A DNA stretch of 36,994 bases from Parcubacteria group bacterium ADurb.Bin247 (GCA_002069755.1 MWBX01000004.1:1-36994), one strand, 5' to 3'; positions 1 to 19,384 are shown, counted from the stretch's first letter. Notes: generated by a model from the sequence alone, not told the origin. Translations and numbers: made by a program.

Positions 1-350
1 GGTGTAGTTCCCCCACTAGTAGTGCAAGATACGGTACTTAGCGTTTGTCCGGCAGTAGTTCTTAAATAGTAAGTATATTTAGTATTGGAGCTTAATCCTG
101 AGTTCGTATAATATCCAGATCTAGTACCTGAAAAAAGAGTTGTTACCAATGTAGCTCCTCGACGAATCTCAACCTGAGAATCTGGGCTAACATAATTATA
201 TTTTAATTTTATAGAATTATTAGTAACAGATTCACAACTAATTGAACCACTGGCAGCATAAGCTTGTTCCCCAACAGCAAAAAAAGCAAAAGAGAAAAAC
301 ATTATTATTGCTAATAAAAAGATTATTCTGTTGTAGTTTAAATTCATCAT
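1..350 (-). CDS. Secreted Fn3-like surface protein, N-terminal part (the gene continues past the left edge); paralog of the next gene
   Basis: My own reverse translation from ATGATG at 350 gives MMNLNYNRIIFLLAIIMFFSFAFFAVGEQAYAASGSISCESVTNNSIKLKYNY...YTYYLRTTAGQTLSTVSCTTSGG. It has the same signal peptide and the same Cys-bracketed Fn3-like module as the 507-aa neighbour, and it starts 4 nt after that gene's stop codon. Confidence 0.6.
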   Translation of the reverse strand, partial: MMNLNYNRIIFLLAIIMFFSFAFFAVGEQAYAASGSISCESVTNNSIKLKYNYVSPDSQVEIRRGATLVTTLFSGTRSGYYTNSGLSSNTKYTYYLRTTAGQTLSTVSCTTSGGTT

Positions 351-354
351 ATTA

Positions 355-1878
355 TTAAACTAAATCTTTTCTTAACTTCTCCAACTTTCTCTTAGCTCTA
401 GAATCAAGAACATCTTCTCTTTTTCTCTCAAGCCATTCTACTAGAATAGAAATGTGTTTTCTAAATAGGACAAATATAATTAGAGTAACGAGTAGTGGTA
501 AAATTACAAAATCAATTAACTTATTATTGGTAATGCCTGTTATAATATTGGTTGCCACTCCAGCAACAACGCCTTTCATTACAAACACCTTAGCAGTATC
601 ACTAACTGACTTAGAACCACTAGAAGCATAAACTGTATTAACAAGATTAGTTGATCCAATTCCAAATTGTTGTTCTTGAGCTACTCGAACATTAAAAGTA
701 ACTACCCTACTTTGTCCCTTAGATAAATTACCGATATTAATTCCTTGAGTTATGTCTCCAGCAGTAATAACATTATCAACGGTTAGACCTCCAGCATATA
801 CTAATCCATTAGGTAAAACATCTCTTACAACTACATTATTTGTGTATCCATCTGATTTAACTTTGATATAAAAAGATATTAACTCTCCTGGGGCTACAGT
901 AACAGAGTCTAACCACTCGGTGTTTTTATCTACACTTCTTACCAATTTTTGAATTGTTAAAGAATCTGCTGATTCAACAACTTGCTTAGTGCTGCAAATT
1001 ACCGAAGCTATTAGCGGAGAACCAGTGTTAACTCCATTTCTAAGATAATAATTATAACTTCCACTGCTTAAATTAGTGTCTTCAAAAAGGCCAAAATCAT
1101 TAGAGACTCCCCAGTTTTTAATCAAATTCTTTCCTCTAAAGAGTGAAACATTGTTTCCTTCACTGAAACTATACTCAACACTTATACTATCGCTTGTAAA
1201 TTCTCTACATTTAAGATTGCCACGAACATCATCGTATTTGTTAGTATTAAAACTAAATATCTGACCATAGCTTGTCCCACAACTATTCTGAGCCACAGCT
1301 CTAAAATAATATGTTGTATCTTTTGATAAAAACTCAATAGTTCTGCTAATACTATCGCTAGAATATATGCCTTGCTTGTTAGTAGAATTATTAAGGTGAT
1401 ATTGTGATTCTCCGTATTCAAACCAAAACTGAGTATATTCATCGTAAACCTCAACATCGCCATTCAATACTGCTGATTTAGAAGTAATAGATTCAGCACT
1501 ATATGTAGTAGCAACAGGAGAGTTGCATGTTGTGCCACCAGTTTTGCTAGCAACACATTCAATTGTATCTATTACGAGGCCACCAATTACTAAATGATAT
1601 TCATATACAAAGTTGGTATTTAGCCCTTTGTGAACATAACTACCACTATTAGTTCCCCATCCAAGATCTGCTATTTTAGAATTACCACTAAAAAGCTCTA
1701 CATTTTCAGATGCATTAAAGTATTCGTAGTTAATTTGAATAGAATTATCTGTTTTAGGACCACAAGTAATATTTCCACTAGTGGCATAAGCGGTATCAGC
1801 AACGACAAAAAACACAAGAAAGAAAAACATTATTGTGCTTAAAGAAACTATTCTGTTTTTAATTAAATTCATCATCAT
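355..1878 (-). CDS. Cell-surface protein: signal peptide, three Fn3-like modules, a DUF11-like repeat domain and a C-terminal TM anchor with a long charged tail
   Basis: Signal peptide MMMNLIKNRIVSLSTIMFFFLVFFVVADTAYA. There are two Cys-bracketed modules (SGNITCGPKTDNSIQINYEY... and RGNLKCREFTSDSISVEYSF...) and a WFEYG...TTYYFRAVAQNSCGTSYG Fn3-like module. A DUF11-like stretch reads VAPGELISFYIKVKSDGYTNNVVVRDVLPNGL. The C-terminal TM is LIDFVILPLLVTLIIFVLF, followed by a K/R/E-rich tail. Confidence 0.75.
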   Translation of the reverse strand: MMMNLIKNRIVSLSTIMFFFLVFFVVADTAYATSGNITCGPKTDNSIQINYEYFNASENVELFSGNSKIADLGWGTNSGSYVHKGLNTNFVYEYHLVIGGLVIDTIECVASKTGGTTCNSPVATTYSAESITSKSAVLNGDVEVYDEYTQFWFEYGESQYHLNNSTNKQGIYSSDSISRTIEFLSKDTTYYFRAVAQNSCGTSYGQIFSFNTNKYDDVRGNLKCREFTSDSISVEYSFSEGNNVSLFRGKNLIKNWGVSNDFGLFEDTNLSSGSYNYYLRNGVNTGSPLIASVICSTKQVVESADSLTIQKLVRSVDKNTEWLDSVTVAPGELISFYIKVKSDGYTNNVVVRDVLPNGLVYAGGLTVDNVITAGDITQGINIGNLSKGQSRVVTFNVRVAQEQQFGIGSTNLVNTVYASSGSKSVSDTAKVFVMKGVVAGVATNIITGITNNKLIDFVILPLLVTLIIFVLFRKHISILVEWLERKREDVLDSRAKRKLEKLRKDLV

Positions 1879-1923
1879 ATATCTTTAAAAACTTTAATTG
1901 ATAATTAAAACCTTTAAAAATAT

Positions 1924-1951
1924 GGGAATCAGGTTTAACATTCTGATTCCC
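1924..1951 (-). terminator. Hairpin terminator downstream of the high-GC gene
   Basis: Perfect 9-bp stem GGGAATCAG/CTGATTCCC with a 10-nt loop. On the minus strand it is followed by ATATTTTTAAAGG and lies 14 nt after the TAG stop at 1965. Confidence 0.5.
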
Positions 1952-1964
1952 TTTGTTCAAAGAA

Positions 1965-2861
1965 CTACACCCAAGCCCCATAAAGGAGCTTGCCATCACC
2001 CGTTTTGAGAACGGGGCGGACAAGCCCCTCGGGAGGAGGCATCCATACCATGATGCTCTCCCCCTCAACACGGGAGCCTGAGTTGACTTCAAAGAAGTCT
2101 CCCCAGGACTGCCCGCCCTCAGTCTCCCAGTAGAGCTTGAAGGGCGGTGTTGCCCAAACTCTGGCTTCGCCAGGTGTAACCGACTGAACGTCGGTCACAC
2201 CAGGCTGGGTTACCGTTGGCTGGGTTACCGTTGGCTGAGTTACCGTTGGCTGGCTCGGACAAACAGGAATTACTTCCTGTGTGCCTAGGAGGTAATTCCC
2301 CCTATTTTGGGAAACTAACTGGACTTTCCCTTCGGGGAATGTCCAGAATACCTCCCAACCTTGAGCCTCTAGCTCAAGGTAGGAGTTAATCTCCTCCTGG
2401 TCCATTCCCGTGAACCAGGACCAGTAGGTCCTAAAAACCGTATCGGTCTCCAAAACCTGCTGGATCCTGGCCCAGCTGGTTGGCCGTGAGGCAATAACGC
2501 CAACGGCCTTTCCGCCCGCTTGGGCATACCCTTGTGGATACACCCAAGCTGGGGACTTCCCAGCATTCTCCAGCGGTACTAAGACCTCCGAGAGGTCTTC
2601 GCCCGTGAGGCAGAAAGCCTCTTGGACGAAGACCCTGAAGGCCTCGTCCTCGCTCATAAGAGCGAGTACCTCACCCCACGTTCGTGGGGGCATCTGTTCA
2701 ACGATTACGGGGATATCCCCACTGCTGTCTCCCGAACCGCCAAAGGCGGCCAGGAGGAAGATTGCCACAAGGAGGACAAGTCCCCCTGCGACGATCTTCA
2801 TTCCGTGCCTCTCCAGCCATCCCTTCTGGGACGCTGGAGGAGCTGAAATTTCCTCCTCCAT
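1965..2861 (-). CDS. High-GC hypothetical single-pass membrane protein with a (PTVTQ)x3 linker; family not recognised
   Basis: This is the long ORF in the only GC-rich stretch of the window. I place the start at MEEEISAPP (ATG 2861) because GGAGG sits 7 nt upstream; the track start at 2924 would overlap the -10 box. The TM helix is MKIVAGGLVLLVAIFLLAAFGG. The other ORFs in this stretch look like high-GC shadow frames. Confidence 0.65.
   Translation of the reverse strand: MEEEISAPPASQKGWLERHGMKIVAGGLVLLVAIFLLAAFGGSGDSSGDIPVIVEQMPPRTWGEVLALMSEDEAFRVFVQEAFCLTGEDLSEVLVPLENAGKSPAWVYPQGYAQAGGKAVGVIASRPTSWARIQQVLETDTVFRTYWSWFTGMDQEEINSYLELEAQGWEVFWTFPEGKVQLVSQNRGNYLLGTQEVIPVCPSQPTVTQPTVTQPTVTQPGVTDVQSVTPGEARVWATPPFKLYWETEGGQSWGDFFEVNSGSRVEGESIMVWMPPPEGLVRPVLKTGDGKLLYGAWV
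2205..2249. repeat. 15-bp tandem repeat x3 (ctgggttaccgttgg, ctgggttaccgttgg, ctgagttaccgttgg) encoding PTVTQ x3
   Basis: Read directly from the sequence. The repeat is in frame inside the high-GC CDS. Confidence 0.9.
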
Positions 2862-2922
2862 AACTATCCTCCTCGACTCACCTTTCAAAGAACAAGTCTT
2901 TCTGTAAATCGAGATTGTCTCC

Positions 2923-2950
2923 ACTATACCAAACTATATTTTTTTGTCAA
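2923..2950 (-). promoter_or_regulatory. Sigma70-like promoter of the high-GC gene
   Basis: On the minus strand: TTGACA (2950..2945), 16-nt spacer, TATAGT (2928..2923). This is followed by a UTR of about 55 nt ending in GGAGGATAGTTATG. Confidence 0.5.
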
Positions 2951-3035
2951 GCCCTTGCAATAACATATTTATTATTGGATAAAAAAAGAAAAGAGGAAAA
3001 ATAATGGGGAGATGCAATGCACTCTCCCCTTTTGT

Positions 3036-3122
3036 TCATGCTACTATTTGAATATAGTAGCAATAACCCGTCGCCATTATTAATATAATAACGGCGACTA
3101 GAACATCCCATTCCAGCCTCAT
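3036..3122 (-). CDS. Candidate 28-aa hydrophobic peptide (MRLEWDVLVAVIILIMATGYCYYIQIVA)
   Basis: Hand translation; the ORF is below the track's size cutoff. Upstream are TTTACT-17-TATAAG with ATG 7 nt after the -10 box (leaderless geometry) and a GGGGG tract. Hairpin GGGGAGA/TCTCCCC (3006-3029) plus a U-rich run lies just after the TGA stop. This could be a chance ORF. Confidence 0.3.
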   Translation of the reverse strand: MRLEWDVLVAVIILIMATGYCYYIQIVA

Positions 3123-3140
3123 AGTCCCCCTTATACTTCT

Positions 3141-3181
3141 TTTTTAAAAAAAAGTAAAGTGGGGTTACTTTAAAACCCCAC
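3141..3181 (-). terminator. Rho-independent terminator of the sortase operon, overlapping the sortase stop codon
   Basis: On the minus strand: GTGGGGTT-TTAAAGT-AACCCCAC (3181..3159), followed by TTTACTTTTTTTT. Confidence 0.6.
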
Positions 3182-3752
3182 GAATTCCTAGTCTTTTAAT
3201 GTTTTTTCCTGGTGGCCAACAACTTAAAAGAATAATTTCTTCTTCTCCAGAATCATACTTGGGAACATCCTCTCCTACTTCTAGTATTATACTATCAGTA
3301 ATTTCATAAGTATATAATTTGTTATTGAAATATATTTTAATCTCTTCACCTAATTCAAGAGTCTCAGCTTTACTAAAAACCCAATCATAATTAATATTTG
3401 GCCAACCTGGCGGAGCTGAATGACCTAAAATAATAACTTGACCGCCCTCCCCTGGCAGAGATGATCCTGGAAAATGAGATACTCCCCTTTTTAATGCATT
3501 GTATATCGCATCATCTGATTCATTGTCTGGTATAATTAAAGGGGCAATAATATCAATTGCTTCAATTTCAATACTATTTTCTTTATCGTAGTAAATTACC
3601 TCTTCTTTTTCTTTAATAATACTTTCTATTCCTTCAATGGCATAATTACGATTAAAAAGCCAAGAAATATCATTCCAATTCAAAACAATAATGTTTACTA
3701 CAAACACTAATAGAAACATTTTTAATAAAGTATTAATTCTTGAGTTATGCAT
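3165..3752 (-). CDS. Sortase family transpeptidase with an N-terminal membrane anchor
   Basis: The catalytic triad context is recognisable: His in VIILGHSAPPGW, Cys in ILLSCWPPG, Arg in RLGIRG. The N-terminal TM is LLKMFLLVFVVNIIVL. Confidence 0.8.
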   Translation of the reverse strand: MHNSRINTLLKMFLLVFVVNIIVLNWNDISWLFNRNYAIEGIESIIKEKEEVIYYDKENSIEIEAIDIIAPLIIPDNESDDAIYNALKRGVSHFPGSSLPGEGGQVIILGHSAPPGWPNINYDWVFSKAETLELGEEIKIYFNNKLYTYEITDSIILEVGEDVPKYDSGEEEIILLSCWPPGKNIKRLGIRGVLK

Positions 3753-3760
3753 ATTTGTAA

Positions 3761-4690
3761 TTAACTAATCCAAGGACCTTCAACAACACAGCTAAGTATT
3801 GTAGAGTAATTAAAATAGTGGATAATGGTGAATAAAATTAAAAACTTAAATCCTTTAAATATTAAATCATTGTTTTGAGTATCAAACATTAAAAATACAT
3901 TACTAGTAATAATAAAGCCAACAAATAATACTGAGAAGAGGCTTGCTCTCTTGGCTATTTCATCATATTTTAAAATTAAGTTACCAACTAAAGTTGGCTC
4001 AGCCTCAACAATATTTTGGTTTTCGCTAGATATATATACTCCAGTATCATAGTCACCCAAAACAAAAGGATATGTTTTTGGCTCCTCAACAAAAACAAAC
4101 TCTTCTTTACTCTCAATTGCTTGCTTATCATTCGGAGATCCAAAAACCTGAACTGCAAAATATGTTTTTTGTCCATAAAAATCACCCTCTACTACAGCTA
4201 GCCCAATCTCGGTATAATTACTTGATAGTATGTTTGCTTTGTGACTTGGAGATTGGATCCAAGAACTATGAACATTGGCAGAATCTAGAAAACCTGCAGC
4301 TAGATTTTCTCCCGCATAAGAATAATTGTAGCCCGATACTCTAAACCAGTACCATGGGGACACACCGCTAGGACTCCAATGAGAAAAATAGTTATTAGAA
4401 ATCATATCTTGCGCTTTTAAGTAAGCAGTTTGATTTAGCTGCTCATTTTCTACTAATGGATTTAATCCATAATTAATTCTTTCTTGGTTAGTTAACTGAA
4501 CTAATACTTCCCTACTAACATCGGCAAAAAAGGAAAAATTAGGAATCGCTAAAAACAAAAACATCCCAATGAAATTAATTAAGATAAGCAAGAATAGAAG
4601 ATAAGATAAAAAAGAACCACTCAATATTAACGACCGATAATTATTACTAGCACAAGGAAATACAATAGTCCTTAATTTAGTCATACTCAT
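3761..4690 (-). CDS. CAP/SCP (YkwD-like) domain protein flanked by TM segments
   Basis: CAP-domain pattern LTNQERINYGLNPLVENEQLNQTAYLKAQDM...YFSHWSPSG...YAGENLAAGF...VHSSWIQSPSHKANIL...YTEIGLAV. There are N-terminal and C-terminal hydrophobic helices. Confidence 0.75.
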   Translation of the reverse strand: MSMTKLRTIVFPCASNNYRSLILSGSFLSYLLFLLILINFIGMFLFLAIPNFSFFADVSREVLVQLTNQERINYGLNPLVENEQLNQTAYLKAQDMISNNYFSHWSPSGVSPWYWFRVSGYNYSYAGENLAAGFLDSANVHSSWIQSPSHKANILSSNYTEIGLAVVEGDFYGQKTYFAVQVFGSPNDKQAIESKEEFVFVEEPKTYPFVLGDYDTGVYISSENQNIVEAEPTLVGNLILKYDEIAKRASLFSVLFVGFIITSNVFLMFDTQNNDLIFKGFKFLILFTIIHYFNYSTILSCVVEGPWIS

Positions 4691-4706
4691 ATTATATCAC
4701 CCATAG

Positions 4707-7127
4707 TTAATTTGTCAATACTAATTCAAAATTAGACCCAACAATCTTCACAGTACTTCCCTTTTTAATGGTTCCTGATATTAATCCATCGGCTAAAGTA
4801 TTTTCTACTTTGTCTTGAATAACTCTTTTTATTTCACGAGCCCCAAAAACTGGATTGTAGCCAATGTTAACAATTTCTTTTTTCAATTCTTCAGTAATCT
4901 CAAACTCAATCCCCTTTTCTTCTAAATTATTTTTGATTCTATTTAAAATTAATTGAGCAATATCTAAAAGATGTTCCTTACTTAATGGCTCAAAAAGGAT
5001 AACTGAACTAAAACGGTTAATAAATTCAGGTTTGAAAATTGATTCTTTAAAGAAATAATTTAAAAGCTCTAATTTTAAAGACTCTCCACTCATATTGTCT
5101 TTTTCTAATATTAAATTACTTCCAGCATTACTAGTTGCGATAATAATACAATTTTTGAAATCAACTTTTTGACCCAAACCATCAGTAACACTACCTTCAT
5201 CTAGTATTTGCAAGAAAACATTTAAAACATCGCTATGAGCTTTTTCTAATTCATCTAGTAAAACTAAAGAGAATGGCTTTTGCTTAACCTGGCTTGTTAA
5301 TATTCCCTCTCTACTAGAAGAGCCAATTAATCTTTCAATATCACCTAAAGTTTGAAACTCAGACATATCAATACGAATCATATTTCTTACATTTTTGAAA
5401 TAAACTTCGGCTAAAGCTTTGGCTGTTTCGGTCTTTCCTACCCCAGTTGGACCAATAAAAAGAAATGAACCTATCGGCTTATCATAAGAAGAAATGTCTG
5501 AACGAGACCTTCTTAGAGCTGAAGATATTTCTTTTACTGCACTTTCTTGATTAATTAGTCTTTTATGGATCAACGACTCAAGATTCATTAAAATATCTTT
5601 TTCTTGAGTATCCATTACCCCAATTGGAATATTCATTTTACGAGAAACTATTTTACGGATGTGCTCAGGCAAAAGTGTCTTTTCGTTGGTTTGACTAATA
5701 TACATCATTGCCTCGTCTAATAAATCTAGAGCTTTTTTAGGAAATGGCTCTTCGGGAATATATCTTTCAGAGCAAGCAACAATTTCTTTTATGGCTTGAT
5801 ACGATATTATTTTTCGATACTTAAACTCCATATTAATAGACTGTCTTTGCAAAAAGATTATTGTATCTGCCGGAGATAACTCAAAAACATCTATTTTTTC
5901 AAAAAAAGATCCAACCGAGGAGTTATTGTTAATATTCCTATAGCCAGTATAATCGGTAATTCCAATAATCGGAAAAGAAGCAAGGGGAAGATAATTTGCT
6001 AATACTCCCGATATATCAACCTTACCTGGTTTAGACTCACCTAATAAAAAATTATGAATATCGTTAATAAATAAAACAGTGTTACCCGAATTAACAACTT
6101 CTCTAAATATGTGATCTAAAATGTTTTCTAATTCTTCATTATTATCAACATTGGCTATTAAAAAAGGAATATCTAGTTCAATTACTCTTTTATAATTAAG
6201 ATTAGCCAAACTAGTACCATAAAACATCTTTTTGGCTAAAGCACGAATTATACAAACCCTACCCACTCCTGGATCTCCAACTAATAATACATTATTAATG
6301 TTGCTCTTAGCTAAAACTCTCTCAGTCTCTTCAATTTGTTTCTTGTGTCCAATAATATCAGGGAATCCATTTCTTTTAAAATAATCAGTCCAATTAATAG
6401 AAAACTTATCAAGCATTATGGTATAGCCCGAAGCCCAATCTTTAGCTAACGATCCTTTTTTAATAAGATTTTCCCATTTCCAAAACTTTTTTTTGTTTTC
6501 TTCTTTCTTGCGCATATTATATATCCAGCTAAAAACATTACGCACATCATCAGAAGAAACATCGTAGGCTTTAAACACTTCTTTTAAAATAAAATGGTTT
6601 TCTGATGCAAAGATTAAAACATCGTTTTTTTTGATTCGCACTCCCCCTCTAGCCTTTGATTCTTTAAGAGACCCTAATAATAAAGTCCAGATATCATCAT
6701 TATCTTTAGTAGTTTTTAATAATGTTCGTACTTCTTTAATATCAATACCTAGCCTAGAAAAAACAAAAGTAAAATCACTATCATCTAATAAATTGTATAA
6801 AAATTTACAGGTATCAGTAGAGAAAGACCTTGCTACATCAAAATTAAATAGCTCGGCAATATTTTCACTATCTTTTATCTTGGGATATTTTAACTTTAAA
6901 TTAAAGAAATACTCAATTTGGAAAAATATTAAAAAGAAAGAAAAGAATAAAAATATTAATCCAACAAAACTATCATCTATTATTAAAAAATAAAAAAGAG
7001 ATATTACAAAAAGAAGAAAAAATATTGTTTTAAATAATCTGGCTTTTCTAAAAATAATAAAGCGATTCATCGTCACTGCATTAAATATTAAAGCGCTAGA
7101 TGTATTAAATTTTTCTTTTATTACCAT
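4707..7127 (-). CDS. Membrane-anchored ClpB/ClpC-like double AAA+ protein; D1 is degenerate and D2 is intact
   Basis: D2 has Walker A FIGPTGVGKTETAKALAE and Walker B LVLLDELEKAH. D1 aligns to Clp D1 but reads LVGDPGVGRVCIIRALA and VLFINDIHNFL. There are N-terminal hydrophobic helices (FFLLFVISLFYFLII, GLIFLFFSFFLIFF) and a Clp_N-like segment. I chose the start at ATG 7127, which overlaps the upstream stop by 7 nt; ATG 7070 and the track start at 7184 are alternatives. Confidence 0.8.
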   Translation of the reverse strand: MVIKEKFNTSSALIFNAVTMNRFIIFRKARLFKTIFFLLFVISLFYFLIIDDSFVGLIFLFFSFFLIFFQIEYFFNLKLKYPKIKDSENIAELFNFDVARSFSTDTCKFLYNLLDDSDFTFVFSRLGIDIKEVRTLLKTTKDNDDIWTLLLGSLKESKARGGVRIKKNDVLIFASENHFILKEVFKAYDVSSDDVRNVFSWIYNMRKKEENKKKFWKWENLIKKGSLAKDWASGYTIMLDKFSINWTDYFKRNGFPDIIGHKKQIEETERVLAKSNINNVLLVGDPGVGRVCIIRALAKKMFYGTSLANLNYKRVIELDIPFLIANVDNNEELENILDHIFREVVNSGNTVLFINDIHNFLLGESKPGKVDISGVLANYLPLASFPIIGITDYTGYRNINNNSSVGSFFEKIDVFELSPADTIIFLQRQSINMEFKYRKIISYQAIKEIVACSERYIPEEPFPKKALDLLDEAMMYISQTNEKTLLPEHIRKIVSRKMNIPIGVMDTQEKDILMNLESLIHKRLINQESAVKEISSALRRSRSDISSYDKPIGSFLFIGPTGVGKTETAKALAEVYFKNVRNMIRIDMSEFQTLGDIERLIGSSSREGILTSQVKQKPFSLVLLDELEKAHSDVLNVFLQILDEGSVTDGLGQKVDFKNCIIIATSNAGSNLILEKDNMSGESLKLELLNYFFKESIFKPEFINRFSSVILFEPLSKEHLLDIAQLILNRIKNNLEEKGIEFEITEELKKEIVNIGYNPVFGAREIKRVIQDKVENTLADGLISGTIKKGSTVKIVGSNFELVLTN

Positions 7128-7507
7128 AATAGTGTAATACCCAAAACAAAAGATATTATTATAATGATAGGGGACAAAAACCAAAACACAAGCACTAACC
7201 CACCTATCAAAAACAAACTAAATCCTGAAATAACGCCAACAATAATTGTTAACAATCTCACAAATCCTCCCAAGATTCGAGAAATAAAATTTCCAAACAA
7301 AACATTGATATAATTTAATGGACCCGATCCCCTATCAAATGACCAACTATAATTGTGCCAATAACAAAACATTGTTTTAAAAAGAAAACCGATGGAAAAG
7401 AAATCAAAATTAAAAACAATAATATCTCTAAATGTTTTTATTATAAAAAGAGGAGCATCAAATAAATACCATTCAAACCAATTTAAAATTATACTGTTAG
7501 GTTTCAT
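7121..7507 (-). CDS. Small polytopic membrane protein, first gene of the AAA+/CAP/sortase operon
   Basis: ORF of 128 aa with hydrophobic helices (LLTIIVGVISGFSLFLIGGLVLVFWFLSPIIIIISFVLGITLL). It overlaps the next gene at its end. No family recognised. Confidence 0.55.
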   Translation of the reverse strand: MKPNSIILNWFEWYLFDAPLFIIKTFRDIIVFNFDFFSIGFLFKTMFCYWHNYSWSFDRGSGPLNYINVLFGNFISRILGGFVRLLTIIVGVISGFSLFLIGGLVLVFWFLSPIIIIISFVLGITLLW

Positions 7508-7519
7508 ATCCTTAAAATC

Positions 7520-7547
7520 ATTATACTTATTTTAGAGGTATTGACAA
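7520..7547 (-). promoter_or_regulatory. Sigma70-like promoter for the membrane protein/AAA+/CAP/sortase operon
   Basis: On the minus strand: TTGTCA (7547..7542), 16 nt, TATAAT (7525..7520). ATG 7507 lies 12 nt after the -10 box. Confidence 0.45.
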
Positions 7548-7568
7548 GAAAATCATCTTTCTTATAAT
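7541..7568 (+). promoter_or_regulatory. Near-consensus sigma70 promoter facing the acidic mini-ORF
   Basis: TTGACA (7541-7546), 16 nt, TATAAT (7563-7568). Confidence 0.5.
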
Positions 7569-7617
7569 GCTCTTGTAAATACAAAAGGTCGAAAAAAGAC
7601 TTTTAAAAAATAAAAAT

Positions 7618-7788
7618 ATGATTATTGAAAAAACAATTATGCCACTCGTAGCACAAGACGAAGATGAATTAGATGAAATAGAAGAAGATTTAATAGACGA
7701 TGATGAAATAGATGATGACTTGCTAGACGATGATATAGACGAAATTGACGATATTGAAGATGACATTGAAGACAATAATGAAAAGTAA
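7618..7788 (+). CDS. Candidate 56-aa hyper-acidic protein (MIIEKTIMPLVAQDEDELDEIEEDLIDDDEIDDDLLDDDIDEIDDIEDDIEDNNEK)
   Basis: Hand translation; the ORF is below the track cutoff. A consensus promoter lies upstream and a hairpin sits 7 nt after the TAA stop. There is no clear SD. It is mutually exclusive with the Ser-rich minus-strand ORF at 7527..7775, which would contain the minus promoter and lie behind a strong terminator. Confidence 0.4.
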   Translation: MIIEKTIMPLVAQDEDELDEIEEDLIDDDEIDDDLLDDDIDEIDDIEDDIEDNNEK

Positions 7789-7794
7789 TAAAAA

Positions 7795-7818
7795 AAGACC
7801 GCTCAACAAAGCGGTCTT
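7795..7818. terminator. Bidirectional hairpin terminator between the acidic ORF and the histidine kinase
   Basis: AAGACCGC-tcaacaaa-GCGGTCTT, a perfect 8-bp stem. On the minus strand it is followed by TTTTTTTATTA (strong). On the plus strand it is followed by TCTAC (weak U-tract). Confidence 0.6.
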
Positions 7819-7922
7819 TCTACAACCAAGGAAATTGGTATAAAAACAACCAGAGAATAACAACTGCAACAATAAATATAATTAAACAATCTATAATATT
7901 CATAAATTGATGATATCAATTA

Positions 7923-8837
7923 TTAAATAAAAAAACAAGAGGGCTTTTGTCCTCTTTTGTATCTGTCTTTGGGAACAATCATTTCAAACCTTGCTCCTTT
8001 ATTGCCAGTTTCTTTTATAGAAATTCCTGTAATTTCAAGAATTTCTTTGCAGAGAAAGAGGCCTAGCCCCGTATTTTTACCAAAGCCTTTATTAAATATT
8101 CTTTCTTTATCGGCTTCGGGAATACCAGACCCATCATCTTCCCAGATTATGACAAGGCCCTGATCTATCTCCTCACATTTAATGAAGATATTTTTTGACT
8201 GACCATGCCTTTTACTATTATCTAGCAGGTTATCAAAAACCTTGCTAATCATTGGATCAGCGTATATTTCAAAATCATGACAATCACACTGAATATTGCC
8301 ATAAAGTTTTGAGACAATATCCTCTATTCGGACCCATAACGGATCCTGACCCATATTATCGTAGACTCTGGTAAAGTCTACGATTTCCTGTATTTTTGTG
8401 ACCGCACTAGAAGCATCTTTTAAATACCTCAAAGATGCTTCGTCTAAAATATCTTTTTCTATTACGAAATAAAGATAGCCCTGAGCAACCATAATATTGT
8501 TTAAAATGTCATGGCGAGTTATTTGGGATAATAACTGTAGTTTTTGATTAGTGGCCCTAATAGCCCGCTCCAATCTCTTCTTCTCTGTTATGTCACTAAC
8601 AGAGATAATCACCCTCTCTTCTCCAAATGGAAATATATTTATACTAAATACGCTCCCATCAAGCTCATACTCAACAGTCTCCGACTGCTGAGTAACAAGC
8701 ACTTTTGCAATAACCCCTAGGGCTATCGCAACATCATCTTTCGGAATGATATCTGAAAGATGTTTTCCGACAATCCGCTCATTAGAAACCATTTCAATTA
8801 TGGTTCCTTCCTTATCAACAATGTTAACTATGTCCAT
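7923..8837 (-). CDS. Cytoplasmic PAS-domain sensor histidine kinase (orphan)
   Basis: H-box QITRHDILNNIMVAQGYL. HATPase_c N/G boxes: FDNLLDNSKRHG, WEDDGSGIP, FGKNTGLGLFLCKEI. The PAS-like N-terminal half ends in DITEKKRLE. I moved the start to MDIVNIV (ATG 8837) because GGAGGAAGAA precedes it. Confidence 0.8.
   Translation of the reverse strand: MDIVNIVDKEGTIIEMVSNERIVGKHLSDIIPKDDVAIALGVIAKVLVTQQSETVEYELDGSVFSINIFPFGEERVIISVSDITEKKRLERAIRATNQKLQLLSQITRHDILNNIMVAQGYLYFVIEKDILDEASLRYLKDASSAVTKIQEIVDFTRVYDNMGQDPLWVRIEDIVSKLYGNIQCDCHDFEIYADPMISKVFDNLLDNSKRHGQSKNIFIKCEEIDQGLVIIWEDDGSGIPEADKERIFNKGFGKNTGLGLFLCKEILEITGISIKETGNKGARFEMIVPKDRYKRGQKPSCFFI
7929..7956 (-). terminator. Possible weak terminator embedded in the last codons of the histidine kinase
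   Basis: Minus-strand RNA reads AAGAGG-acaaaagc-CCUCUU followed by GUUUUUUUAUUU. The U-tract is translated as FFI-stop. On this strand the stem is only 6 bp. Confidence 0.3.
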
Positions 8838-8905
8838 TTCTTCCTCCGCACAAATTGTAAAAGTGCTAATGACAGCATACCACATAAACTAATTTTTGAA
8901 CAGTG

Positions 8906-8977
8906 TGAGTCCAGATGGATTTGAACCATCGACCTTTCGGATGTGAACCGAACGCTCTACCCCTGAGCTATGGACTC
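8906..8977 (-). tRNA. tRNA-Val (anticodon CAC)
   Basis: Hand-folded cloverleaf. Acceptor GAGTCCA/TGGACTC, D-stem GCTC/GAGC, anticodon stem TTCGG/CCGAA with loop TTCACAT, T-arm GATGG-TTCAAAT-CCATC. No encoded CCA. Confidence 0.9.
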
Positions 8978-8988
8978 CTATACTAATA

Positions 8989-9017
8989 TTGCACATTATT
9001 TTAAAAAATACTATAAT
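8989..9017 (+). promoter_or_regulatory. Sigma70-like promoter of the 9031 gene
   Basis: TTGCAC (8989-8994), 17 nt, TATAAT (9012-9017). ATG 9031 lies 13 nt downstream. The TTG start used by the ORF track is this -35 box. Confidence 0.45.
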
Positions 9018-9030
9018 ACCCTTATTAATT

Positions 9031-10692
9031 ATGCAAATATTTGAATTTCAATTTAATCCAAGAATAAAAACAAAAAAAGTAGAAAACCTCTTTCAAGAGT
9101 TTGAATCAAGTGAACGCAACTTATACATTATTGGTGAACAAAAAAGAATTGTTCCGGGAAATGAAAAATTCTTAACCAATATTATTAGAATGATAAAGGA
9201 CGAATATGCCCTTAACGAGCCTGAAAATCACGAAAAAGCCCTTCAAGAATGTTTAATTAAGATAAATGAATATTTTAAAATTGAAATAGCTAGAAATAAT
9301 ACTGGCTGGATAGGTAATTTAAACTTAGTAATAGTTTCTCAAGACCAAGGAGAAATTCATTTGGCTAAAATAGGTAAATCTAAAATTTACCTTTTGAAAT
9401 ATGAAAACCACTCTGAACTGAATAACAAAGATAAGAAAACTTCTAGCTTCTTTGGAAGTATTATTTCAGGAAAAATGGTTTACGGTGACAGGTTATGTAT
9501 CGTTTCAGAAGAATTGCAAAAAATAGTAGAAAAAAAGAAAATACTAGAAAAAATATCAAAAACCCTATTCCTAGACCAAAAAACTATAGATGAAATTATT
9601 GATCCGATTAAAAAAGACTTAGAAAAATCATCAGGAACATTCTTTCTATTAGATAACAAAAATGTTCCTAAAAAGAAAAGCGCCTTATTAGAAGAAATAG
9701 AAGTAGACTTTTCAATAAAAGAACTCTATTATAATATTAAAAGAATTGCCAATAAAAAAACACTAAAAATTGATAGTGATTTTAAAAATATATTAAAACC
9801 ATTAATTGCACTTGGACTAATACTTTTAGTTGGTTCTTTTATCTTTGGAAAAAAAGAAAAAGAAATTGCCAAAGATATTAATATAGAAGAGAGATTAGTT
9901 CAGATTGATATAACAAAAGAAGAGTCTCTTCCACTGCTAGATGCACTATACAAAGAAACTGAGGCAAAAGAAGTTCAAAATATTATTGATTCATTGGCTA
10001 AAATAGAAAGAGTAGACGAAATTAAAAAAATCAAAGAATTTGAAAAAGACATTAAAGGAATATTTCTAAACAACTATGGATATAGTGACAACTTAGTAAT
10101 ATCAGATAAAGAATACAAATCTAACTTGCCAATAGATTCAATATTTGAGTTTCAAAACAGAATTATTTTGTTTTCAAAACCAAATAAATTGTTAGAATTA
10201 AAAAACAATCAAATTAGCGAAATCAAACAAATTGAAAAGAATAACATTGATAACCTAACACCATATTTAGCTAATATATATTTTACTAGTGGCCAAGAAA
10301 TAATAAAATATAATTTAGATAGCTATAATAATTGGTTAAAATCTCCATTAAAACAACCGACTGACATTATTTCAATGTCAGTCGATGGTCATATTTGGAT
10401 TTTACAGCAGGGAAATCAAATATCTAAATATTATCTTGGTGAACACTTGGCAGATATTAATTTTGATATATTTCCAAGCTCTAAAAACTTTATTCAGATA
10501 TTAACTTCTAGTCAGACTGATTACCTCTTTGTCTTAGATTCATCTCACAATAGAATTATTGTGTTAGATAAAAATGGTAAACTGGTTAAACAAATTTGGA
10601 GTGAAAAGTTCAACAACCTAAAACAAATCCAAATATCTGATAATAAACTATATATCTTAAATAGTAATACTATCTACGAAACCACTATTTAA
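9031..10692 (+). CDS. Hypothetical single-pass membrane protein: possible degenerate PP2C/SpoIIE-like N-domain and C-terminal NHL/beta-propeller-like repeats
   Basis: The central TM is [20 protein letters not shown]. An NHL-like motif reads [25 protein letters not shown]. The N-terminal pattern [24 protein letters not shown]...[11 protein letters not shown] resembles the PP2C fold only weakly. Confidence 0.65.
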
Positions 10693-11113
10693 GTGTAATT
10701 GTAGCACCAGCTGCTTCAAACTTCTTCTTTATTTCCTCAGCATCTTCTTTACTTACACCTTCAGAAACTATTTGAGGTGAATTTATTGCTCCGTCAACTA
10801 AGTCTTTGGCCTCTTTAAGACCTTTTCCGGTAATATCTCTAACAATTTTAATTACCTCTATCTTTTTATCACCAACCCCACTAAGCTCAATATCAAATGA
10901 GCTCTTCTCTTCTGCATCAGTGTCACCACCAGCCTGAGTAGCCACAGGAGCAACAACAGCCATAGGCATAGATGCAGAAACTCCAAACTTCTTCTCTAAA
11001 ACTCCTACAAGTTCTGAGAGATCTAAAACTGACATATTAGAAATTTCTTCTACAATTTTAGCAAATTTTTCAGGAACTTGTACTTCTTCATCTTTCTTTA
11101 TTTCTTCTGTCAT
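10685..11113 (-). CDS. rplL: 50S ribosomal protein L7/L12
   Basis: Recognised from [20 protein letters not shown] and the C-terminal domain [24 protein letters not shown]...[11 protein letters not shown] prefer ATG 11113; the track start at 11128 is a TTG. Confidence 0.9.
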
Positions 11114-11138
11114 TTTTTTAAAAGCCAAATCTTATTTC

Positions 11139-11651
11139 TTAGGACTTGACTTGTTTAAGTGTGTAAATTAAACCTTTAATGTTCCCCTCCAATACAGCAA
11201 CGAAACCAGAAATTGGAGCTTGAATTGTTCCAACTAATTTGCCTAAAAGCTCTTCTCGACTAGGAAGTTTAGCTAATTCTAAAACTTGTTCTTCGGAAAT
11301 AACACTTCCATCCATAAACCCACTAACTATTTTAAGGTTTGGATTGTCTTTCGAAAAGTTATAAGCAATCTTAGCTGGAGAAATTGGATCTGAAAAACCA
11401 AAAACAACACCAACCTCTTCTTTAAGCTCTTTAGCATCAACATCTATTTGGTTATTTTTAAAAGCAATATTCATTAATGTTTTCTTAAAAACTGTAAACC
11501 CGGCATCGCTCTTTCTAAGCTCACTTCTTAATTTGGATATTTCATCCATTTTAAGACCTTTAAAGTTTACAAAGATCATTGCTTTTTGTTTTTTGATCTT
11601 CTCGTCTAAATCTTTAACTATCTCTTGTTTTTTTTCTTTGGTTAAAGGCAT
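11139..11651 (-). CDS. rplJ: 50S ribosomal protein L10
   Basis: L10 pattern KKQEIVKDLDEKIKKQKAMIFVNFKGLKMDEISKLRSELRK, located immediately upstream of rplL. Confidence 0.9.
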   Translation of the reverse strand: MPLTKEKKQEIVKDLDEKIKKQKAMIFVNFKGLKMDEISKLRSELRKSDAGFTVFKKTLMNIAFKNNQIDVDAKELKEEVGVVFGFSDPISPAKIAYNFSKDNPNLKIVSGFMDGSVISEEQVLELAKLPSREELLGKLVGTIQAPISGFVAVLEGNIKGLIYTLKQVKS

Positions 11652-11769
11652 ATTTTTTAAAATAAAAAACTACGTAAATACACGCAGACAAAGGACGACC
11701 TTTTCAGTTATACCTCGAGAGGATTTAATATTACCTCTTGTCTGCGGTTGATTAAACAATATCAATTTT
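11652..11769 (-). promoter_or_regulatory. Structured rplJ 5' leader (L10-leader-like)
   Basis: A 10-bp long-range helix CGCAGACAAG/UUUGUCUGCG (11746..11683) encloses a GAGG/CCUC hairpin and is followed by a U-rich run before the ATG. The family assignment is not verified. Confidence 0.3.
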
Positions 11770-12816
11770 TTAGTTTTTAGTCAAGAGATATTTCTTGGGC
11801 CAAGCTTCTAATGTTTTTGACGATATATAGCAAAATAAAATAAGGAACAAAAGATATATATAAAATCTACCCTCTTCTCCTAAATATTCATAAGTGTTAG
11901 TTACTCTGTAAAATTGATATATGATTAAATATACTGGGAATTGAAGAATATAAATCCCATAGCTAGCTTCACCCCCTTTTACTAACAATGGCCAAGATAA
12001 TATTTTTTTTATTACCGAAGTAGATGTTGCTGCTCCTAAAATAAGAAAGGCGAAAATTGGTGCAATTAACCCATTATGATTAATGAAATTATCCGGAACA
12101 AGCGGTAAATAAACTATTAAAAATAACATTGCAAGAATAAAATAAATATTACCATTCATCTTGTTTTTTAAAAACACCAAACCAGCCATCATCCCAATTA
12201 AAAATTGATTCAAATGGAGTAAGGGAAAGAACTTAGTAAAGTTTTTAATAAATATGTCTGTTTGATCTAAATTAAAAAATAACCACAAGAATATAATACT
12301 ACTGACTAACCAAAACAAAAAAACATATTTTGATATCTTACTATTATTAAAAAACAACGGAACAATGAAAGGGAACAATAAATAAAAAAACATTTCTACA
12401 GAAATTGACCATCCTGGAAAATTAACTGATAGCGCATTAGTTGGAAACCATGCTTGTAGAAAAAATAAGCTTTGAATAAATCCATCAAAAGAAATAGATA
12501 TATCGTTATCAACAAAAAAAGAGACAAAAAACAAAACTATAAGCGCAATAATATATAAAGGAACAATCCGAATTAATCTTTTAAAATAGAAATTACCTGC
12601 TTTTATGTAAGAAAATTCTTTTAATTCATTATAATTTATAATCATAATAAAACCAGACAGAACAAAGAAAAAACTAACTGCTAAATGCATAGCATTAGTA
12701 TAAGGAAAACTATTAAACGGAAAACTCCATTTTCCAAAATGAAATATCACCACAGCTATAGCGGCAAAAAACCTTAACGAACTCAATTGAGCTATAAACT
12801 TATTATTAGCAGTCAT
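11770..12816 (-). CDS. Acyltransferase family 3 (OatA-like) integral membrane protein
   Basis: N-terminal motif LRFFAAIAVVIFHFGKW, about 10 hydrophobic helices and WSISVEMFFY. Confidence 0.8.
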   Translation of the reverse strand: MTANNKFIAQLSSLRFFAAIAVVIFHFGKWSFPFNSFPYTNAMHLAVSFFFVLSGFIMIINYNELKEFSYIKAGNFYFKRLIRIVPLYIIALIVLFFVSFFVDNDISISFDGFIQSLFFLQAWFPTNALSVNFPGWSISVEMFFYLLFPFIVPLFFNNSKISKYVFLFWLVSSIIFLWLFFNLDQTDIFIKNFTKFFPLLHLNQFLIGMMAGLVFLKNKMNGNIYFILAMLFLIVYLPLVPDNFINHNGLIAPIFAFLILGAATSTSVIKKILSWPLLVKGGEASYGIYILQFPVYLIIYQFYRVTNTYEYLGEEGRFYIYLLFLILFCYISSKTLEAWPKKYLLTKN

Positions 12817-12819
12817 ATC

Positions 12820-13102
12820 TTAATTAATATTACCAATACAAACCCTTTTAAAGGATATAATAGTTATGACAACACTATCAAGCACAATTCTAATTTGATG
12901 CTTTTTCCCTTCGTTTAAAATAATTCTCAAGGTATTATTATCAATAATCTTTGTCTCATCTGTATATCTCAACAACATCACCCTCCTCTATCATATAGTC
13001 ACTAATAACGATAGTGCCATTAACACGAACCAATCATTTTTCTATAAAATCATCTGCTTCGCGACATAAGCTATAATTCCGTTTAAGATATTTAGAATTC
13101 AT
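12820..13102 (-). pseudogene. Decayed RsuA/RluB-type pseudouridine synthase remnant
   Basis: Hand translation gives MNSKYLKRNYSLCREADDFIEK-TGA-LVRVNGTIVISDYMIEEGDVVEIYR-TGA, which is an S4 domain with an in-frame stop. After a frame change it reads TLRIILNEGKKHQIRIVLDSVVITIISFKRVCIGNIN, the C-terminal synthase motif. The catalytic core is missing. Its ATG overlaps the upstream TGA as ATGA. Confidence 0.6.
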
Positions 13103-14253
13103 TTTAATATATACTCACGAAAATTAACACTTGCACCACCGTTTCCTTTCAAAAATTCATCATATGTAGGCATTAAACACATAACAATATTGCCATCTAA
13201 AAAGTTTGAGTAAACAACCCTATTTTTGTAAACAGCAAGCCCAGTTGGCTGATTTCCACCAATAACCACATCTAACATATTACCCGTAGCAGTATCAAAA
13301 AACATTACCGTGCCCCAATCAGGTCCAGGGATATAGTAACTTTCGTTATTATTCGTTCCCCTATTTGAAACTATTAAAATATTTTTATCTTCTGTTAAAA
13401 CAATTGTATTTGGATTCTTTTCTGTTTTGATAAATTCCTCTACTTTATCATCTTTTAAATATACTTTATATATTTTTGCATTTGCCATGTCAGAAAAATA
13501 TAAAATACCTCTTTCTTCATCGGCAACAATATGTCGCATCGCTCCCCCATTTTTGTAAATAACATTACTTTCTTTTGTTTCAAGATTAATCTTTTGAATT
13601 TCACCATCATCAAAACCAGCAACATATAAATATTTTCCATCTTTAGTAGGATAAATTCCTCTTGGTGTTTTCACAGTTTGAATATGATCAAGTAATTCTC
13701 CTGTTTCTAAACTAATAACAGATATATTATTTCCAGACCAATTAGAGGCATAAAGAATACTTTCATCTTCGGATAAGATTACAACCTTGGTCCAAGCACT
13801 CTTTGTTTCAAAAGTTCTAGTTATTTCTTTTGATTTAGTGTCTATTTCATAAACCCTCCCCGTTTCCATTTGACTAACATAAGCCATACTCCCATTTTTA
13901 TTGAAAATAATCTCTACTGCCCCACCATCTGGTAAAACAATATCTTTTTTGTGACTTCCAGTATTAGTTTCAAAAACTATCACTCCTCGATGCTTATTCA
14001 TTAATGATGTTACCCAATATTCTTCACCATCAGGAGTAAAAGCAATACCCTTTGGAGAAGGAACACCATCTCTTTTGTAAAGACAATCCACTATCTGGTT
14101 TGGCATTTTCTCTGCAAAAGATGATTCTTCTCGGTAATAAACTTCCTCTTCTATTTCACTTTCTTCTGCTTGATAATAGATATATTTCTCTTCTTCTTTT
14201 GTGCAATAAAAACAAACTAAGGCAATAATTACGACTACTATTATTTTTTTCAT
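13099..14253 (-). CDS. Secreted or anchored YVTN/YncE-like seven-bladed beta-propeller protein
   Basis: N-terminal hydrophobic signal MKKIIVVVIIALVCFYC. Repeated blade motifs: PKGIAFTPDGEEYWVTS, MAYVSQ, ILYASN, PRGIYPTKDGKYLYVAG, ILYFSD, ILIVSN, PTGLAVY. Confidence 0.7.
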   Translation of the reverse strand: MKKIIVVVIIALVCFYCTKEEEKYIYYQAEESEIEEEVYYREESSFAEKMPNQIVDCLYKRDGVPSPKGIAFTPDGEEYWVTSLMNKHRGVIVFETNTGSHKKDIVLPDGGAVEIIFNKNGSMAYVSQMETGRVYEIDTKSKEITRTFETKSAWTKVVILSEDESILYASNWSGNNISVISLETGELLDHIQTVKTPRGIYPTKDGKYLYVAGFDDGEIQKINLETKESNVIYKNGGAMRHIVADEERGILYFSDMANAKIYKVYLKDDKVEEFIKTEKNPNTIVLTEDKNILIVSNRGTNNNESYYIPGPDWGTVMFFDTATGNMLDVVIGGNQPTGLAVYKNRVVYSNFLDGNIVMCLMPTYDEFLKGNGGASVNFREYILK

Positions 14254-14258
14254 AATTA

Positions 14259-16173: not shown

Positions 16174-16174
16174 G

Positions 16175-16245
16175 CGGGTCCGCCCCGACTCGAACAGGGA
16201 ACTTTGCTTTTGGAGAGCAAAATTATGCCATTTAACTACAGACCC
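16175..16245 (-). tRNA. tRNA-Trp (anticodon CCA)
   Basis: Hand fold. Acceptor GGGTCTG/CGGACCC, anticodon stem TTGCT/AGCAA with loop CTCCAAA, T-arm CCCTG-TTCGAGT-CGGGG. The discriminator at 16175 is 1 nt from the def ATG. Confidence 0.9.
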
Positions 16246-16301
16246 AAATCAAAATCAAACTCAAATTTACAATTTGAAATATTCTTAATCAATTGAGTAA
16301 A

Positions 16302-16475: not shown

Positions 16476-16489
16476 ATTATTATTTTCTG

Positions 16490-16561
<72 letters not shown>

Positions 16562-16570
16562 AATATAATG

Positions 16571-19383: not shown

Positions 19384-19384
19384 A

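Follow-up and report, generated by a model that had tools for sequence, protein, structure and literature searches.

The stretch of DNA analyzed here, called the window throughout, comprises 36,994 nucleotides (nt) from Parcubacteria group bacterium ADurb.Bin247 (GCA_002069755.1 MWBX01000004.1:1-36994), and this study concerns two adjoining genes within it that encode a 128-amino-acid (aa) integral membrane protein, referred to as p128, and a Clp/Hsp100-like ATPase with a predicted length of 806 aa. Both lie on the minus strand, p128 at 7121..7507 and the ATPase at 4707..7127, and are followed on the same strand by genes for a CAP/YkwD-family protein with hydrophobic segments at its N- and C-terminus (3761..4690, Pfam CAP) and for a sortase with an N-terminal anchor (3165..3752, Pfam Sortase). 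These four genes are tightly spaced. An earlier note on this DNA had correctly given the gaps of 16 nt between ATPase and CAP and 8 nt between CAP and sortase, and the overlap that it reported between the ATPase gene and the upstream 128-aa frame was also confirmed, at 7 nt (ATGGTAA). The longest open reading frame (ORF) of the ATPase runs from a TTG codon (4707..7184, minus strand, 825 aa), and its likely start, judged from the sequence, is the ATG at 7127, which overlaps the p128 stop and was chosen by gene callers in public assemblies made independently for this organism.

The association of the two genes was surveyed in 80 loci, designated by L numbers, with one genome scanned per species. 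A p128 homologue was located directly upstream of the ATPase gene in 53 of the 80 loci by a single phmmer pass, and upstream of it or fused to it in at least 71 after three profile iterations, which bears out the proposal that the upstream membrane protein belongs with the ATPase. In 18 of these loci, for example in Moran-, Portnoy-, Berkel- and Woesebacteria, p128 forms the N-terminus of the ATPase polypeptide, and a search with one such fusion retrieved over 200 fused proteins, each about 816 aa long. Visual inspection showed the p128 N-terminal motif in most of the loci missed by the profile: FS..L..FF.PYRRD in both L031 and L035, and similar motifs in L058, L066 and L072. The spacing between p128 and the ATPase varied from overlaps of a few nt, often of stop and start codons, to small gaps. 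A p128 profile searched against 1.84 billion cluster representatives matched 1562 clusters (50% identity); amongst the best 150 of these, 141 were shorter than 150 aa, and all those longer than 500 aa were Clp fusions. p128 is genetically locked to the ATPase, and the sequence comparisons indicate that the two form a two-component unit across the Patescibacteria, which has become one polypeptide in some lineages. A frameshift dividing a single gene into p128 and the ATPase was considered and rejected, since ATGGTAA is an ordinary case of stop/start coupling, independent assemblies also list two genes, and most loci have them unfused.

Homologues of p128 share an N-terminal head with a conserved W13, an FS motif, TLFxPWxR and NxISRxxGxxxR, and a C-terminal part consisting of a hydrophobic helix pair with a conserved Pro. 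No p128 family was present in Pfam, NCBIfam or PADLOC, and Pfam searches with 34 homologues returned single weak, inconsistent matches. No homology was detected between p128 and the membrane hairpin that the ATPase itself carries, and the p128 profile missed the N-termini of unfused ATPases. A structure model for the fused clade had low confidence for the conserved PWxR loop.

More than 500 relatives of the ATPase were retrieved in a protein search, the top 120 of which were all full-length at about 800-860 aa. The named sources of the top relatives were Nealsonbacteria, Minisyncoccales and Parcubacteria or Patescibacteria groups, with the labels 'AAA family ATPase' or 'ClpC', and family members are named ClpC, ClpA or generic AAA ATPase in the databases. 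The 80 loci include Nealson-, Staskawicz-, Portnoy-, Berkel-, Sung- and Andersenbacteria as well as Moran-, Kaiser-, Levy-, Woese- and Kerfeldbacteria, Paceibacterota, WWE3 and CPR3; a few bins amongst them labelled 'Gammaproteobacteria' or 'Bdellovibrionales' are probably mislabels. No description of a p128-Clp family was found in full-text literature searches on Clp/Hsp100, AAA+ or membrane-anchored proteins of Patescibacteria, the candidate phyla radiation (CPR) and Saccharibacteria.

The ATPase is clearly a derivative of a known superfamily. Pfam matched AAA_2 (3.5e-46), ClpB_D2-small (2.9e-24) and AAA_lid_9 (8e-9); the closest PDB sequence was that of E. coli ClpB (1e-112), with ClpB, ClpC and ClpA as the best solved relatives; and an AlphaFold2 (AF2) model with a pLDDT of 83.7 gave ClpC, ClpB, ClpC1 and ClpA as its top Foldseek matches (E 1e-50 to 1e-38). 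The tandem AAA+ modules, AAA_lid_9 and ClpB_D2-small that mark the class I Clp/Hsp100 fold were thus all present, in agreement with the description in the earlier note of a Clp-like double AAA+ protein that lacks both an M-domain and a ClpP-docking loop. Alignment with ClpB fell into two pieces that left the M-domain unmatched, and alignment with ClpA ran as one uninterrupted stretch (query 253-814 versus ClpA 164-733), from which it follows that there is no M-domain. In the relevant segment, the ClpP-docking tripeptide [ILVM]G[FLM] occurred neither in the window protein nor in any of the 118 full-length homologues used for motif statistics.

Ahead of the AAA+ modules, the hydrophobic N-terminal helices noted before resolved into two, detected by hydropathy and in the AF2 model, which form a transmembrane (TM) hairpin at aa 29-79 (6891..7043, minus strand) with a very short inter-helix loop. 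AF2 placed these helices at 29-49 and 52-79, and hydropathy peaks reached 2.5, which supports the proposed membrane anchor; a hairpin of this kind is present in nearly all of the 118 homologues. It is followed by a helical N domain at aa 90-213 (6489..6860, minus strand), modelled as a bundle of eight to nine helices, for which the comparison with Clp_N held only in part: a Clp_N-like domain is plausible, but profile matches to the N domains of Hsp101, Hsp104 and ClpC in the PDB were weak (E 0.005-0.5), and PF02861 was precomputed in only some homologues. The domain is likely a divergent Clp_N. Between the N domain and D1 lies a Trp-rich linker at aa 213-247 (6387..6491, minus strand; KKFWKWENLIKKGSLAKDWASGYTIMLDKFSINWT) that is specific to the family, with the pattern KKFWKWENLIKKGSLAKDWASGYT..LD.FS..WT, and is kept in the p128-fused clade. 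Its invariant residues are W216, N220, L221, G225, W231, G234 and D240, and outside D2 no part of the ATPase is better conserved (entropy 0.91 bits, as against 1.73 in the N domain).

The first AAA+ module, D1 (aa 255-500; 5628..6365, minus strand), was compared with ClpB in a HMMER alignment and can be described as a pseudo-ATPase. Its Walker A motif reads GDPGVGRV (6255..6278) where ClpB has GEPGVGKT, Walker B reads LFINDIHN (6051..6074) in place of LFIDELHT, and the Arg-finger site reads VGSFFEK (5895..5915) in place of ALERRFQK, all on the minus strand. Neither an intact Walker A Lys nor an intact Walker B Glu was found, which confirmed the loss of catalytic residues claimed previously. 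Amongst the 118 homologues, the family form of Walker A is GEPGxGRK, with Lys changed to Arg in 100 and the Mg-binding Thr changed to Lys in 97; nearly all have L/F-F in place of the Arg-finger pair, and Walker B retains DE in just ~60%. Across the 80 loci, the lesions differed by clade (GxxGIGKK, GDPGVGRL, APSEDGAA, and GKDGVGKT combined with CFDNAE). Such independent decay between clades with the fold retained is as expected of a ring kept for structure.

The second module, D2, together with ClpB_D2-small (aa 504-806; 4710..5618, minus strand), retains Walker A (GPTGVGKT, 5430..5453), Walker B (LLDELEKA, 5238..5261), the Arg finger (INRF, 5004..5021) and sensor-2 (GAR, 4824..4844), all on the minus strand, as well as the sensor-1 N. 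Walker A, Walker B, the Arg finger (R705) and sensor-2 were invariant in the 118 homologues, the pre-sensor-1 hairpin region DEGxxTDGxGRKVDF and D2-small were fully conserved, and D2 was canonical as an ATPase throughout the 80 loci. The earlier statement that D2 is intact was therefore upheld for the ATPase motifs, but it did not extend to pore loop-1 (5295..5333, minus strand; RLIGSSSREGILT). This loop is six residues shorter than that of ClpB: it reads RLIGSSSREGILTS, and in the HMMER alignment a clean 6-residue deletion takes out GYVG. The shortened loop was present in 118 of 118 homologues, with the consensus RLIGSPGEEGLLTT. In D1, the site of the ClpB pore-loop KYRG is occupied by VDNN, within a segment without Tyr (ANVDNNEE, 6132..6155, minus strand).

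In Clp/Hsp100 proteins, the pore-loop tyrosine grips and translocates the polypeptide, and it is strongly conserved in working unfoldases. Aromatic residues in the homologues were limited to 29 of 118 in the D2 loop segment and 9 of 118 in that of D1, and in the 80 loci the pore loops varied freely in length and sequence, with an entropy of 2.33 bits versus 1.3-1.8 in the flanks. Two features of a functional Clp/Hsp100 unfoldase, aromatic pore loops in both rings and hydrolysis motifs in both rings, were thus lacking. D2 appears from its motifs to be intact as an ATPase and not as a canonical translocase, and because GYVG is deleted from D2 and the D1 pore-loop Tyr is absent family-wide, a canonical threading unfoldase is unlikely. 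The role suggested in the earlier note, an unfoldase that extracts surface proteins, is accordingly doubtful, since the family as a whole has lost the gripping tyrosines from both rings. Recurrence in the 118 homologues shows that the lesions of D1, the membrane hairpin and an intact D2 are not chance features of one protein. The pair in the window displays each feature that defines the family: a p128 that is immediately upstream or fused, an N-terminal TM segment, degeneration of D1, canonical ATPase motifs in D2 and a D2 loop without aromatics. The combination is unusual in uniting a membrane anchor, a dead D1, a catalytically complete D2 without pore-loop aromatics, and a small membrane subunit whose obligate character is shown by fusion.

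Membership in the named Clp classes was examined against the NCBIfam equivalog cutoffs of 1232 bits for ClpB (TIGR03346), 993 for ClpA (TIGR02639) and 885 for ClpV (TIGR03345). ClpB/Hsp104 was rejected on a score of 448 bits and the lack of an M-domain, ClpA/ClpC/ClpE on a score of 412 bits and the docking tripeptide found in 0 of 118, and ClpV/TssH on a score of 342 bits, with no type VI secretion system genes among the annotated neighbours. A role in anti-phage defence was also rejected: PADLOC returned generic ClpB-D2-type matches (DolB, PDC-M37B) and none for p128, and the synteny is that of housekeeping genes. Additionally, a canonical ClpC/ClpB paralogue lies ~0.1-1 kb from the degenerate gene in L033 (11172..13844), L064 (4927..7635) and L079 (10721..13300). 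These paralogues have GEAGVGKT, FVDEMH, LERRFQ, KYRG and PPGYVGYEE and no TM segment, and their presence in the same loci shows that the degenerate protein is an extra paralogue and not the ordinary Clp chaperone. In a sub-family represented by L031 (4023..6662) and L035 (7182..9884), a p128-like N-terminus is fused to an ATPase whose D1 Walker motifs are intact and whose D2 loop reads GY.GY; these proteins may represent an intermediate in evolution. A second sub-family (L029, L043 and L079 7395..10160) carries a Cys4 zinc-ribbon N-terminal to the TM helices.

Published transposon sequencing in Southlakia epibionticum, a Saccharibacterium in cultivation, provided information about an apparent counterpart of the pair. 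SEML1_0701 (127 aa, annotated as hypothetical) overlaps SEML1_0700, an 860-aa 'AAA family ATPase' with AAA_2 at 544-706, ClpB_D2-small and AAA_lid_9 and no Clp_N, and both are divergent from MurT and CobQ/GatD (PMC10633639 Table S1). The canonical ClpC of this organism is a separate gene, SEML1_0512 (PMC10633639). SEML1_0700 and SEML1_0701 appear to be the orthologous pair, on the basis of their architecture and of synteny with a sequence-confirmed Saccharimonadota p128 locus (L085). Both genes were called NE, NE and GD over passages P0-P2, and their normalised reads dropped at each passage (4124, 2517 and 1638 in one series, 258, 157 and 51 in the other; PMC10633639 Table S1); the main text of that paper makes no mention of Clp or AAA. 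If the orthology is correct, the p128 and ATPase genes share one phenotype, being dispensable but costly to lose, and such a shared late growth defect is as expected for one machine.

Unbiased clustering of neighbours in the surveyed loci revealed a recurrent gene order of YceG/MltG, L10, L7/L12, a divergent gene for a 567-aa protein, p128, the ATPase, mraZ, rsmH, ftsL and ftsI. mraZ and rsmH were found downstream of the ATPase in 21 of the 80 loci, with mraZ starting ~60-300 nt past the ATPase stop in many loci, most close relatives included. The window keeps this order (YceG at 14774..15715, L10, L7/L12), and public contigs of this organism place MraZ and RsmH right after a block made up of CAP, sortase, a GC-rich ORF and a DUF11 protein. 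In Saccharimonadota, MurT/GatD are divergently adjacent to the pair. Since mraZ directly follows the ATPase in relatives and the CAP-sortase block intervenes here, this block is an insertion between the ATPase and mraZ. The earlier expectation of a conserved four-gene cassette failed in the neighbourhood survey, where a CAP and a sortase gene directly 3' of the ATPase were confined to the window lineage and to L001, its nearest relative (ATPase identity 52%); the adjacency is lineage-specific, and a dedicated four-gene operon is not supported. In five other loci, the opposite strand carries a CAP gene ~4-5 kb upstream, and at least two of these (L036 and L041) also have an adjoining sortase gene.

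Other genes were observed beside the pair. Homologues of the 567-aa protein (8989..10692, plus strand; one central TM segment, no family match) stood beside it in 11 of 80 loci, either upstream in divergent or downstream in convergent orientation; these loci belong to two distant clades, and this protein may be a further associated component. In L002, two ORFs of ~112 and 117 aa without a Pfam match (6875..7213 and 7223..7576) lie directly upstream of p128 on the same strand. The same ORF pair, also present in L003-L005, L007, L009, L010, L012, L016 and L046, occurs in 8-10 loci of a Nealson/Staskawicz-type clade and is absent from the window; the two ORFs may be extra operon members in these lineages. 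A PAS and HATPase_c histidine kinase (7923..8885, minus strand), with a higher GC content of 0.37, is inserted in the window, with p128 on one side and the 567-aa gene on the other. Searching the 80 loci for homologues of this kinase gave none near the p128-ATPase pair, and no response regulator was seen in the annotated part of the window (about 350..20000).

The signals around the four genes include a promoter-like site, TTGTCA-16-TATAAT, 5' of p128 (7520..7547, minus strand), for which the evidence is 11 of 12 consensus matches only, and, 5' of it, a strong terminator hairpin that ends the histidine-kinase gene (7821..7792, minus strand). A terminator-like hairpin overlaps the sortase stop (3181..3159, minus strand). 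A perfect sigma-70 consensus, TTGACA-16-TG-TATAAT, lies in the 3' end of the ATPase gene (4718..4691, minus strand) and abuts the CAP start; two such perfect sites occur in the 37-kb window versus 0.07 expected. The promoter-like site and the hairpin that had been taken to enclose one transcription unit were recovered, but a single promoter is not established, because the perfect site directly precedes CAP. This second site probably gives rise to an independent CAP-sortase transcript, possibly leaderless from the ATG at 4684, the CAP start in one public gene call (L084). The signal scan of the window detected no terminator between the ATPase gene and CAP, so read-through from the one into the other is possible. 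Divergent from p128 is a 56-aa ORF (7618..7788, plus strand), extremely acidic with Asp/Glu/Ile/Leu repeats, which lies behind one of the window's two perfect sigma-70 sites (7541..7568), is followed at its end by the bidirectional terminator (7792..7821) and is called as a gene in public assemblies. The -35 elements of this site and of the p128 promoter overlap.

Within the inserted block, CAP matched Pfam CAP (1e-16) and, below the model cutoff, TIGR02909 (3e-35), and the sortase matched Pfam Sortase (6e-13) and TIGR01076 (40.4 bits versus a cutoff of 39.35). The best NCBIfam match of the sortase was the LPxTATN-specific SrtD model, below cutoff. The GC-rich ORF encodes 319 aa (1965..2924, minus strand), has 52-60% GC in a ~30% GC genome with the GC island coinciding with the ORF, and shows an N-terminal TM segment, a PTVTQ repeat and a promoter-like site (2950..2923). 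It had no match in the Pfam, NCBIfam, PADLOC or phage searches. An assembly chimera was ruled out by its presence in independent JGI and ENA assemblies, and the ORF is probably a recent horizontal acquisition within the sortase cassette. The DUF11-repeat surface protein (507 aa; 355..1878, minus strand) has an N-terminal signal/anchor and a sorting-signal-like C-terminus (…VAGVATNIITG…, a hydrophobic helix and an RKH tail), features that make it a likely substrate of the adjacent sortase. In L001, two DUF11-protein paralogues follow the sortase.

With somewhat less than even confidence, we favor the interpretation that the pair is a hexameric, Torsin-like membrane ATPase switch, possibly acting in envelope or division processes. 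The ATPase would assemble as a ring, given its Clp fold and the invariant D2 Arg finger, which acts between subunits. The N-terminal position of the anchor would put the N-domain/D1 face against the membrane, as would also hold for the Trp-rich linker, beside a collar formed by the ATPase's own hairpins and p128, and we infer that the linker and the p128 head constitute a functional interface there. D1 would be a structural ring, perhaps still nucleotide-binding, comparable to NSF D2 or p97 D1. ATP turnover in the membrane-distal D2 would drive conformational switching or assembly/disassembly cycles of the membrane complex and would not power processive, hand-over-hand threading of polypeptides. 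The weakest step concerns the process served, which could be envelope growth or division, as suggested by the adjacency of the pair to mraZ-rsmH-ftsL-ftsI and MltG (Paceibacteria-type) or to MurT/GatD (Saccharibacteria).

Comparison with known systems places these features in context. The family shares with ClpA, ClpC and ClpB the two AAA+ modules, AAA_lid_9, ClpB_D2-small, a Clp_N-like N domain and the D2 motifs, and with ClpA the same domain order without an M-domain; it differs from all three in its membrane hairpin, dead D1, lack of pore-loop tyrosines and ClpP tripeptide, and obligate p128. Torsins are Clp/Hsp100-related, lack aromatic pore loops, depend on membrane-spanning cofactors and are regarded as unlikely substrate threaders (PMC5425593). 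Like Torsin with LAP1/LULL1 of the eukaryotic endoplasmic reticulum (ER) and nuclear envelope, the system described here has a Clp-D2-related AAA+ module, an N-terminal hydrophobic segment and a membrane-spanning partner, and the Torsin-like working features that were tested, namely non-aromatic pore loops, a TM hairpin and p128 linkage or fusion, were all present. Torsins, however, have a single AAA+ module, reside in the ER lumen and receive their Arg finger from a degenerate AAA+-like cofactor, whereas the bacterial protein has an intrinsic D2 Arg finger, a dead D1 ring and a partner without an AAA+-like fold. Membership in the Torsin family was rejected on the two modules, the invariant R705 and the nature of p128 as a small helical membrane protein, and the likeness, the closest in working terms to any known system, is best read as a functional analogy, not as membership or orthology.

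Other systems share single elements. NSF (D2), p97 (D1) and Pex1/6 (D1) also have one non-hydrolytic ring without pore-loop aromatics, presumably an assembly scaffold, but their other ring keeps aromatic loops and threads, whereas here the active ring lacks them too. HSP101 of the Plasmodium PTEX, which works with the EXP2 pore, likewise couples a Clp/Hsp100 ring to a membrane assembly and was among the weak N-domain matches; unlike the present protein, it has no membrane insertion of its own, and both its D1 and its D2 are active and carry pore-loop tyrosines. ClpI of Actinomycetota sets a precedent for a lineage-specific third double-ring Clp class recognized by sequence analysis, although it is without a membrane anchor and retains an M-domain, translocation motifs and intact ATPase modules (PMC10149685).

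Several points weigh against a Torsin-like switch. The oligomeric state and ATPase activity of every family member are predictions, any client is conjectural, and it is architecture and synteny, not sequence, that make SEML1_0700/0701 the presumed orthologues. Pore loops without aromatics could still make contact with substrates. Since L031 and L035 keep the GY.GY loop and the D1 Walker motifs together with a p128-like fusion, the ancestor may have been a true threading membrane unfoldase, and some of this activity could persist. Both membrane hairpins are almost without an extracytoplasmic loop, which leaves no evident target for the collar, and the fused p128 forms show two or three hydrophobic segments, which would fit more than one topology of p128. 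Finally, the link to division and the cell wall comes solely from synteny and could reflect an inherited gene order.

The explanation that survives next best, which takes up the idea of the earlier note and which we consider unlikely, is a substrate-threading membrane unfoldase or extractase, resembling FtsH without its protease or Msp1, that would pull out membrane or secreted proteins, sortase substrates included, using D2 power and non-canonical pore residues, with p128 as a substrate adaptor or membrane gate. FtsH and Msp1/ATAD1 have an N-terminal membrane anchor and a ring entry face toward the bilayer, and the N-domain/D1 face would abut the membrane here as in FtsH. The full conservation of the D2 ATPase, the pre-sensor-1 hairpin region and D2-small, the GY.GY loop of the p128-fused L031 and L035, and the sortase cassette adjoining the ATPase here and in L001 are all compatible with such a function. 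The known extractors are, however, classical-clade single-ring AAA proteins with aromatic pore loops, and FtsH has a fused protease; the present family has lost GYVG, does not conserve pore-loop aromatics in either ring (9 of 118 in D1, 29 of 118 in D2), tolerates more variation in the pore loops than in their flanks, and has neither a ClpP loop nor a fused protease. Moreover, the CAP and sortase genes are served by a promoter of their own and do not recur as neighbours across the family.

An improbable alternative is that the ATPase is a membrane-tethering or regulatory pseudo-chaperone that would form mixed rings with ClpC/ClpB or FtsH, or recruit them, with ATP binding by D2 controlling assembly. 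A dead D1 kept as a fold and a retained Clp_N-like domain would suit this role, as would the canonical ClpC/B genes ~0.1-1 kb away in L033, L064 and L079, but this adjacency was found in just 3 of 80 loci, and a D2 in which the Walker B Glu, the Arg finger and sensor-2 are strictly conserved favours hydrolysis over scaffolding. Least probable is a single operon of p128, ATPase, CAP and sortase for surface display, in which the common strand, the 16- and 8-nt gaps, the lack of a detected terminator between ATPase and CAP and the same arrangement in L001 (ATPase 52% identical) are outweighed by its absence from the other 78 loci, mraZ directly following the ATPase in relatives, the perfect internal promoter before CAP, and the foreign 54% GC gene and DUF11 protein that are typical of an inserted accessory block.

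Clp/Hsp100 proteins are the textbook hand-over-hand polypeptide translocases. A large family that has kept their double-ring scaffold and a competent D2 with the gripping loops excised is a natural experiment on the other uses of this scaffold, a question so far posed mainly by Torsins, and the finding belongs to a widespread family and is not peculiar to this window. Patescibacteria genomes are very small, yet the two-gene module is kept in Parcubacteria-, Microgenomates-, Saccharibacteria- and Berkelbacteria-type lineages, and for this reason it likely serves something central to the envelope or lifestyle. It is possible, though well short of probable, that the family represents a phylum-wide, undescribed membrane machine, in which an Hsp100-derived ring gave up threading and a single active ring remodels or gates a collar of membrane helices, and that this action is needed for envelope growth, division or the host-dependent membrane biology of these ultra-small episymbionts. 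If true, the Torsin principle would have its first counterpart in bacteria, and a genetically tractable one, since what appears to be the same pair is present in the cultivable S. epibionticum.

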